Sequence record: PP925837.1
DNA length: 48,223 nt
Strand: one strand, 5' to 3'
DNA from: Escherichia phage Turner
Shown here: positions 6,391-6,435 of the stretch, one piece after another
Position numbering within the stretch: the stretch's first letter is position 1
Layout: every line of letters begins with the position of its first letter
Translations under genes and position numbers: made by a program
The notes under the pieces: model-generated
Told to the model about the DNA's origin: nothing
The model's input: the letters and a program-made list of their open reading frames with translations, nothing else
The model's database searches: none

Positions 6391-6435
6391 TGGCGCGCCC
6401 TGCAGGATTCGAACCTGCGGCCCACGACTTAGAAG
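6391..6435 (-). other. attP core: 45 nt identical to the 3' end of tRNA-Arg(UCU) argU, including CCA; not an intact tRNA gene
   Basis: Reverse complement is CTTCTAAGTCGTGGGCCGCAGGTTCGAATCCTGCAGGGCGCGCCA, the anticodon-loop-to-CCA part of argU; the flanking 5' sequence cannot form the acceptor or D arm. Confidence 0.8.

Follow-up and report, generated by a model that had tools for sequence, protein, structure and literature searches.

Integration of prophage DLP12 at the argU tRNA gene of Escherichia coli has been known since Lindsey, Mullin and Walker (1989), as cited in PMC2629481 and PMC6379469, and DLP12 lies at argU with a 47-bp repeat (PMC6379469). The attP site of phage epsilon34 consists of 43 bp of argU just downstream of int (PMC2629481), and the epsilon34 integrase is reported to be about 80% identical to that of DLP12. 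In SfI, attP carries 46 bp of thrW, and attP, attB, attL and attR have all been verified by PCR (PMC3636060). In class I integrases that target tRNA genes, strands are exchanged in the 7-bp anticodon loop, as stated in PMC1762012 with reference to Williams 2002. A "false tRNA gene" has been described at the attP site of phage L/P22 (bioRxiv 10.1101/2020.10.05.325894).

An attP site drawn from a host tRNA gene is established biology, through DLP12 in 1989, epsilon34 and the P22/SfI work. Here we analyze the corresponding locus of Escherichia phage Turner (PP925837.1), whose 48,223-nt sequence is referred to as the window. Our additions are refinements: a 47-bp identity block, candidate arm sites, a false tRNA in phage Kati, and a tandem-lysogen explanation of chromosomal junctions that look like attP.

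Gene content and circular closure of the window

The gene set of the window is lambdoid and includes exo/bet, xis, int, ompT, tail fibre, tail, head, terminase, lysis, Q and replication genes. The last 300 and first 300 bases of the window are contiguous, at 99.8% identity, in other phage genomes, where they run across cII/cro. We therefore conclude that the window holds the entire genome of a lambdoid phage of the DLP12/"Nesevirus" type, its circle cut between cII and cro. A 2001-nt query (5200–7200) that takes in int, the att core and the beginning of ompT has its closest records in Escherichia phages 2G7b (genus Nesevirus), ev243 and Kati, at 99.2–99.7% identity. A search of the literature on phages 2G7b, ev243 or PhiR for mention of argU found nothing relevant.

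The core is a 47-bp block shared with the host argU locus

The minus strand of the window at 6391–6435 reads CTTCTAAGTCGTGGGCCGCAGGTTCGAATCCTGCAGGGCGCGCCA. This 45-mer has a single match in the window, with 0 mismatches, and is absent from 100 dinucleotide-preserving shuffles. It is identical in 45 of 45 nt to positions 33–77 of the 77-nt argU gene of K-12, a segment that opens with the complete anticodon loop (CTTCTAA, anticodon UCU) and closes with the 3' CCA. The original prediction had proposed an exact argU copy over this segment, directly downstream of int and convergent with it, and the alignment bears out both points. Since int is on the plus strand, it converges on the core, with a gap of 15 nt; argU and intD have the same convergent geometry in K-12.

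The predicted length of the core needed a small correction. We rebuilt attB from the K-12 outer flanks of attL and attR, joining the argU 5' region, the core and envY-side DNA, and compared it with the window position by position. The two sequences are identical over 47 bp only. Because identity with the unoccupied host site extends 2 nt (TT) past the CCA, the shared block is 47 bp rather than 45 nt. We conclude with high confidence that this block is the core of the phage attP site. Coordinates of the core, the arms and the neighbouring genes are given in Table 1.

Table 1. Features of the attP region and adjacent genes, in window coordinates
Feature	Position	Strand	Basis
xis, excisionase (recombination directionality factor)	4985..5356	+	81% identity to SfI Xis over all 116 aa
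int, tyrosine integrase, 387 aa	5212..6375	+	Pfam Phage_integrase PF00589, 160 bits
P' arm (int side), inner flank of attL in a lysogen	6300..6388	-	299/300 against K-12 attL inner flank
Tandem TGGGAC-N5-TGGGAC, candidate arm-type Int sites	6325..6341 (6325-6330, 6336-6341)	-	TGGGACAnATTTGGGAC
IHF-consensus-like site, P' arm, just after CCA	6373..6385	-	ATTCAATCAGTTA, 1 mismatch to consensus
attP/attB identity block, 45 nt of argU plus TT after CCA, 47 bp	6389..6435	-	attP against rebuilt attB
att core, copy of the argU tRNA-Arg(UCU) 3' part	6391..6435	-	exact 45-nt match
Anticodon loop CTTCTAA, inferred 7-bp overlap (strand-exchange) region	6429..6435	-	attB identity begins exactly here
P arm (ompT side), inner flank of attR in a lysogen	6436..6560	-	293/300 against K-12 attR inner flank
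IHF-consensus-like site, P arm, 20 nt from core	6455..6467	+	AGTCAACAACTTA, 1 mismatch to consensus
TGGGAC, candidate arm-type site, P arm	6491..6496	-	within invariant GGGACGTGTGAGCGCAG
TGAGAC (6545-6550) and AGGGAC (6556-6561), candidate arm-type sites, distal P arm	about 6545..6560	-	motif
ompT, omptin outer-membrane protease, cargo gene adjoining the P arm	6860..7813	+	Pfam Omptin, 434 bits

The integrase is identical to K-12 IntD at 385 of 387 residues (99%) and is 74% identical to the thrW-specific Int of SfI. Its catalytic region, HxLRHT...RYAH, aligns to that of the HP1 integrase. The excisionase gene overlaps the start of int by 145 nt, and a Pfam HTH_17 match falls on the open reading frame that contains xis (4955–5356).

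On the other side of the core, two cargo genes lie between attP and the tail-fibre genes (window 6860–9484): ompT and a 494-aa open reading frame. The latter corresponds to an alpha/beta hydrolase annotated at the same position in related phage records and in that of E. coli E28, a lysogen described below. According to the K-12 and E28 gene maps, ompT comes to lie at the far end of the integrated prophage, beside envY. A 116-aa open reading frame on the opposite strand (6616–6966) overlaps the start of ompT; it has no Pfam match and is probably not a gene. Upstream of ompT, at 6649–6733, are two pairs of near-identical short direct repeats, ATAAAAACACCACA / ATAAAAAAACCACA and TAAAACAATAACAGATA / TAAACCAAAAACAGATA, each spaced 19 nt. 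These repeats may be ompT regulatory sites or distal arm elements.

Both flanks of the core are found separated in natural lysogens

The 300 nt to either side of the core were compared with DLP12 of K-12 in the argU orientation. The ompT-side flank matches the inner flank of attR at 293 of 300 positions, and the int-side flank matches the inner flank of attL at 299 of 300. In K-12, attL consists of the argU 5' part, the core and the int-side flank, while attR consists of the ompT-side flank, the core and host DNA on the envY side. The K-12 annotation begins DLP12 at argU position 33 and ends it one base before the attR copy of the core.

The empty site is also common. Contiguous attB is found in 2532 of 5426 complete E. 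coli genomes (about 47%), and the best matches are 100% identical and annotated as fimZ / tRNA-Arg / envY. The lysogen junctions that the original prediction had suggested looking for are present in K-12 DLP12 and in E28, with the prophage between fimZ-argU and envY. The related proposal that the phage-borne core would rebuild argU on integration also stands: identity runs through the CCA, and K-12 attL joins the argU 5' part to the core.

An uninterrupted int-core-ompT junction was detected on the chromosome in 79 genomes, one of which (E. coli E28) was examined. E28 carries a near-identical pair of prophages in tandem at argU, with three copies of the core. The attL copy has the argU 5' half on its left and the P' arm on its right, and the attR copy has the P arm on its left and the envY side of the host on its right. 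Between them, an internal junction of the attP type joins the P arm (199/200) to the P' arm (197/200). The two prophage copies (NZ_CM143889.1, 3,693,984–3,783,981) are apparently identical to each other and, as a closely related prophage, 99.1% identical to the window at the junction. In the other 78 complete genomes the junction is mostly 95–97% identical, and these may be cases of a new phage inserted beside an older DLP12-like remnant. In IMG/VR, core-bearing contigs include 42 attL-type and 6 attP-type junctions, in a tally that leaves out the attR-type class.

In thousands of E. coli genomes, prophages end in a core with phage DNA on one flank, which raises the question of whether the window itself holds an attL or attR boundary of a chromosomal prophage, and hence host DNA, rather than attP. 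We consider this very improbable. Both flanks in the window are phage DNA: int and xis lie to one side, and ompT and then the tail-fibre and tail genes to the other. The argU 5' half and the host flank on the envY side are both absent from the window, and its ends join into a closed phage genome. The sole chromosomal setting of such a junction is the middle of a tandem lysogen, where it is identical in sequence to attP. As sequence, the window could equally represent the internal junction of a tandem prophage pair instead of a packaged phage.

The reading of the block as an attP core is supported by the agreement of the lysogen flanks, the rebuilt attB, the empty site and the E28 junctions, and nothing contradicts it. 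The locus has several features of a class I attP site: a tRNA 3' identity block, an adjacent tyrosine integrase, separation of the arms into attL and attR, and an unoccupied attB. It also has those of the DLP12/IntD module, namely an integrase orthologous to IntD, homologous arms, and xis upstream of int and overlapping it. Judging from the near-identical prophages, we infer that the phage in the window would itself integrate at argU.

The argU-intD junction of E. coli (DLP12 attL) also occurs verbatim in short contigs labelled Streptomyces, Chryseobacterium, Umezawaea and others, and in short contigs labelled as Segatella copri and Mycoplasmatota MAGs. Its presence in such foreign-labelled assemblies is almost certainly E. 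coli contamination.

The 5' flank of the core does not complete a tRNA gene

The annotation of phage Kati (PP925833.1) includes an 84-nt tRNA-Pro on sequence identical to that of the window (6391–6474 on the minus strand; 2692–2775 of the Kati locus examined). If this annotation were correct, the core would be the 3' half of a genuine tRNA gene, about 84 nt long and encoded by the phage. We therefore searched the region with ARAGORN and the Rfam tRNA model. ARAGORN found no tRNA in the whole window at default settings, and none in 6301–6600 with -ps or at relaxed thresholds down to 90%. At the 80% threshold, and only there, it reported an 83-nt "tRNA-Leu(tag)" in 6301–6600. The Rfam tRNA model (RF00005) scored 24.8 bits, under its gathering score of 29, and the alignment was local (model positions 9–63), with a 29-nt insertion and no acceptor stem. 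In this alignment, a small hairpin at 6455–6467 was mistaken for a tRNA arm. No complete cloverleaf with a paired acceptor stem scored above curated thresholds here, and the same sequence carries no PGAP tRNA annotation at the K-12 attR or the E28 junctions.

The weak ARAGORN call and the Kati annotation both lean toward a tRNA gene, as does the 5' flank GCGCGGT, which pairs with the acceptor 3' strand at 5 of 7 positions when read from the sequence. However, the two calls disagree on the anticodon (Pro in one, Leu in the other). Furthermore, the 5' flank is conserved P-arm sequence, shared with thrW phages in which the tRNA part has a different acceptor stem, and the "false tRNA gene" described at the phage L/P22 attP is the same artefact. 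A functional tRNA gene at this position is thus scarcely credible, and we conclude that the Kati "tRNA-Pro" is a spurious call built from the real 3' half of argU and P-arm sequence.

It had been predicted that the 5' flank could not complete a tRNA, and that an intact tRNA called here by a covariance search would overturn the attP reading. Given the ARAGORN and Rfam results, the absence of a PGAP tRNA and the precedent at the phage L/P22 attP, no such tRNA was found and the prediction holds.

As a weaker variant of the modular-scaffold reading set out below, the tRNA-like features of the 5' flank may be what is left of a captured tRNA gene that was formerly complete and has since decayed. The flank does share GCGC..T.AG with argU, and we considered it as a decayed argU 5' half; but it is the conserved P arm in thrW phages as well. 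We treat the resemblance as chance or as a reflection of arm function.

Core alleles follow the host, and strand exchange probably occurs in the anticodon loop

We scanned core variants in one genome per species and found two forms of the 45-mer. The E. coli type, carried by the window, always follows a 5' half ending in ACGAC and occurs in Escherichia, Shigella and Kluyvera. The Salmonella type always follows ACGGC and occurs in Salmonella, Citrobacter, Atlantibacter, Siccibacter and Aeromonas, and the Salmonella phages SEN22 and BIS08P22 carry this type. Since the phage core co-varies with the host argU 5' half, the phage copy matches the host allele and the anticodon stem stays paired after integration. 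Hybrid cores (the E. coli type beside a Salmonella-type 5' half, or the reverse) were absent from all 158 core occurrences at public loci, so the natural data give no position for the crossover.

Several other loci show variations on this arrangement. The Salmonella-type variant of the 45-nt tRNA-Arg(UCU) 3' part is exact as far as Aeromonas and Pseudaeromonas. Some Aeromonas genomes have a second core copy with a 5' flank that is not tRNA, which suggests that other elements have integrated at the same tRNA. A locus of Salmonella enterica subsp. arizonae has core copies at 2841–2885 and 6013–6057, separated by only about 3.1 kb. In the first, argU leads into a flank like the int side; the second has a P-arm-like 5' flank and leads into a further flank of int-side type. 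The arrangement resembles a small element or remnant with a second element integrated in tandem behind it. In Shigella flexneri SFBU0723 (CP182557.1), the argU 5' half before the core ends in ...AGAGCAACGAAC, with an extra A in the anticodon stem. The extra base would disrupt the tRNA and may be a homopolymer sequencing error.

Strand exchange probably takes place within the anticodon loop. Sequence identity taken by itself permits a crossover at any point of the 47-bp block, such as the T-loop used by class II integrases, and no hybrid-core lysogens that could map the crossover were found. We nevertheless regard a crossover elsewhere in the block as rather unlikely. Identity with attB begins exactly at the first base of the anticodon loop here, and at the homologous thrW site of SfI it begins one base before that. 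This is the pattern expected if the overlap region determines where identity starts on the left. In attB, the anticodon stem forms an inverted repeat flanking a 7-bp spacer. The position also agrees with the crossover mapped to the anticodon loop in class I elements, as PMC1762012 states.

Arms and candidate binding sites

We aligned the att region with those of the argU Salmonella phages SEN22 and BIS08P22 and of the thrW phage SfI. In all of them, the P arm is conserved well past the core, with invariant blocks such as GGGACGTGTGAGCGCAG. The P' arm overlaps the 3' end of the int coding sequence. There the tandem TGGGAC element, in the last int codons, is unchanged in four of four phages while neighbouring codons vary. 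In the same orientation, GGGAC reaches 4 copies per 260 nt at the att region, the maximum for the window, against a window mean of 0.17. The TGGGAC-type repeats are thus candidate arm-type Int sites. A 10-nt direct repeat, ACGACATTTT (6305–6314 and 6444–6453), was also considered as an arm-type site. This repeat is not conserved in SEN22, BIS08P22 or SfI and was dropped for that reason in favour of TGGGAC.

Three sites within one mismatch of the IHF consensus occur in the 401 nt from 6250 to 6650, compared to 0.49 expected, and two of them flank the core. Within the P-arm site, TTGTTGACTTAAAA is conserved in the phage alignment. Like the arm-type sites, these are predictions at the level of motifs.

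A P-arm stretch of 82 nt (about 6476–6557) is approximately 96% identical to SfI, compared to approximately 75% for the int genes at the DNA level. This shared block reflects either strong functional constraint or a recent mosaic exchange ending near the core. Past the core on the int-sense strand are three terminator-like hairpins (6516–6603, plus strand), where 0.5 would be expected by chance. They sit where an int retroregulator resembling lambda sib would be expected.

Proposed integration mechanism

In the mechanism we propose, Int would bind the repeated TGGGAC sites of both arms, P and P', together with core-type sites around the anticodon-stem region, and its bridging would probably be assisted by IHF bending at the sites that flank the core. 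Strand exchange with chromosomal argU would then occur in CTTCTAA, the 7 bp of the anticodon loop. The 45 nt brought in by the phage would replace the displaced 3' part of argU, so that the lysogen would keep a functional tRNA-Arg(UCU). The displaced host copy would be left as a tRNA fragment at attR, at the far end beside ompT and envY. The resulting attL would read argU 5' half, core, and window sequence from 6390 downward; attR would read window sequence from 6436 upward, core, and TTTCTTCC... Xis together with Int would reverse the reaction.

One reading of the arm conservation is that the att region is a modular scaffold, in which the integration module of the P22 family has been re-targeted naturally through exchange of just the core and the portion of Int that binds it, with the arms held fixed. 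The 82-nt P-arm block at about 96% identity and the invariant P' TGGGAC repeats fit this reading, given int genes at about 75% and cores taken from different tRNA genes. We consider it unlikely. If true, the scaffold would offer a naturally occurring model for the reprogramming of heterobivalent integrases.

The value of these results is practical, not conceptual; they open no long-standing question, and phage biologists will not be surprised by them. They fix the prophage boundaries (6389–6435) and the locus (argU, fimZ/envY) for this group of DLP12-type phages. They indicate that intact, circulating relatives of the cryptic DLP12 of K-12 still use the argU site and deliver ompT. Lastly, they flag a recurring annotation error, the false tRNA at attP, as in Kati.

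Comparison with known systems

The closest described system is K-12 DLP12, which shares with the window the argU target, the 45/47-bp core and the ompT cargo next to the P arm, as well as near-identity of Int (385/387) and of both flanks (293/300 and 299/300). However, DLP12 is a decayed remnant, riddled with IS elements, and its xis is a pseudogene. The phage in the window is intact and closes into a circle; its xis is intact, its structural and lysis modules are complete, and the two half-sites are joined as attP.

Epsilon34, SEN22 and BIS08P22 likewise have, just downstream of int, a core made of the 3' part of argU, with a homologous Int and conserved arms. In these Salmonella argU phages, the core is of the Salmonella type, with 2 substitutions that match the ACGGC anticodon-stem partner of the host. 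They are also P22-like podoviruses, whereas the window phage is of the lambda-like siphovirus type.

The thrW phages P22, SfI, SfII, SfV and SfX share the order xis-int-attP-cargo and have a 46-bp core that runs from the anticodon region to the CCA. Identity is 74% for Int and 81% for Xis, most of the P arm is conserved, and the TGGGAC repeats do not vary. The difference lies in the core and the cargo, which are thrW and gtrABC (O-antigen modification) in these phages, compared to argU and ompT in the window.

The attP of lambda (POP') resembles that of the window in having a heterobivalent tyrosine integrase with Xis, arms with repeated sites, and IHF-like sites that flank a short crossover region. 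Unlike the window phage, lambda has a 15-bp core and an intergenic site between gal and bio that involves no tRNA gene. In the window, part of the P' arm is formed by the 3' half of a tRNA gene and the end of the int coding sequence.
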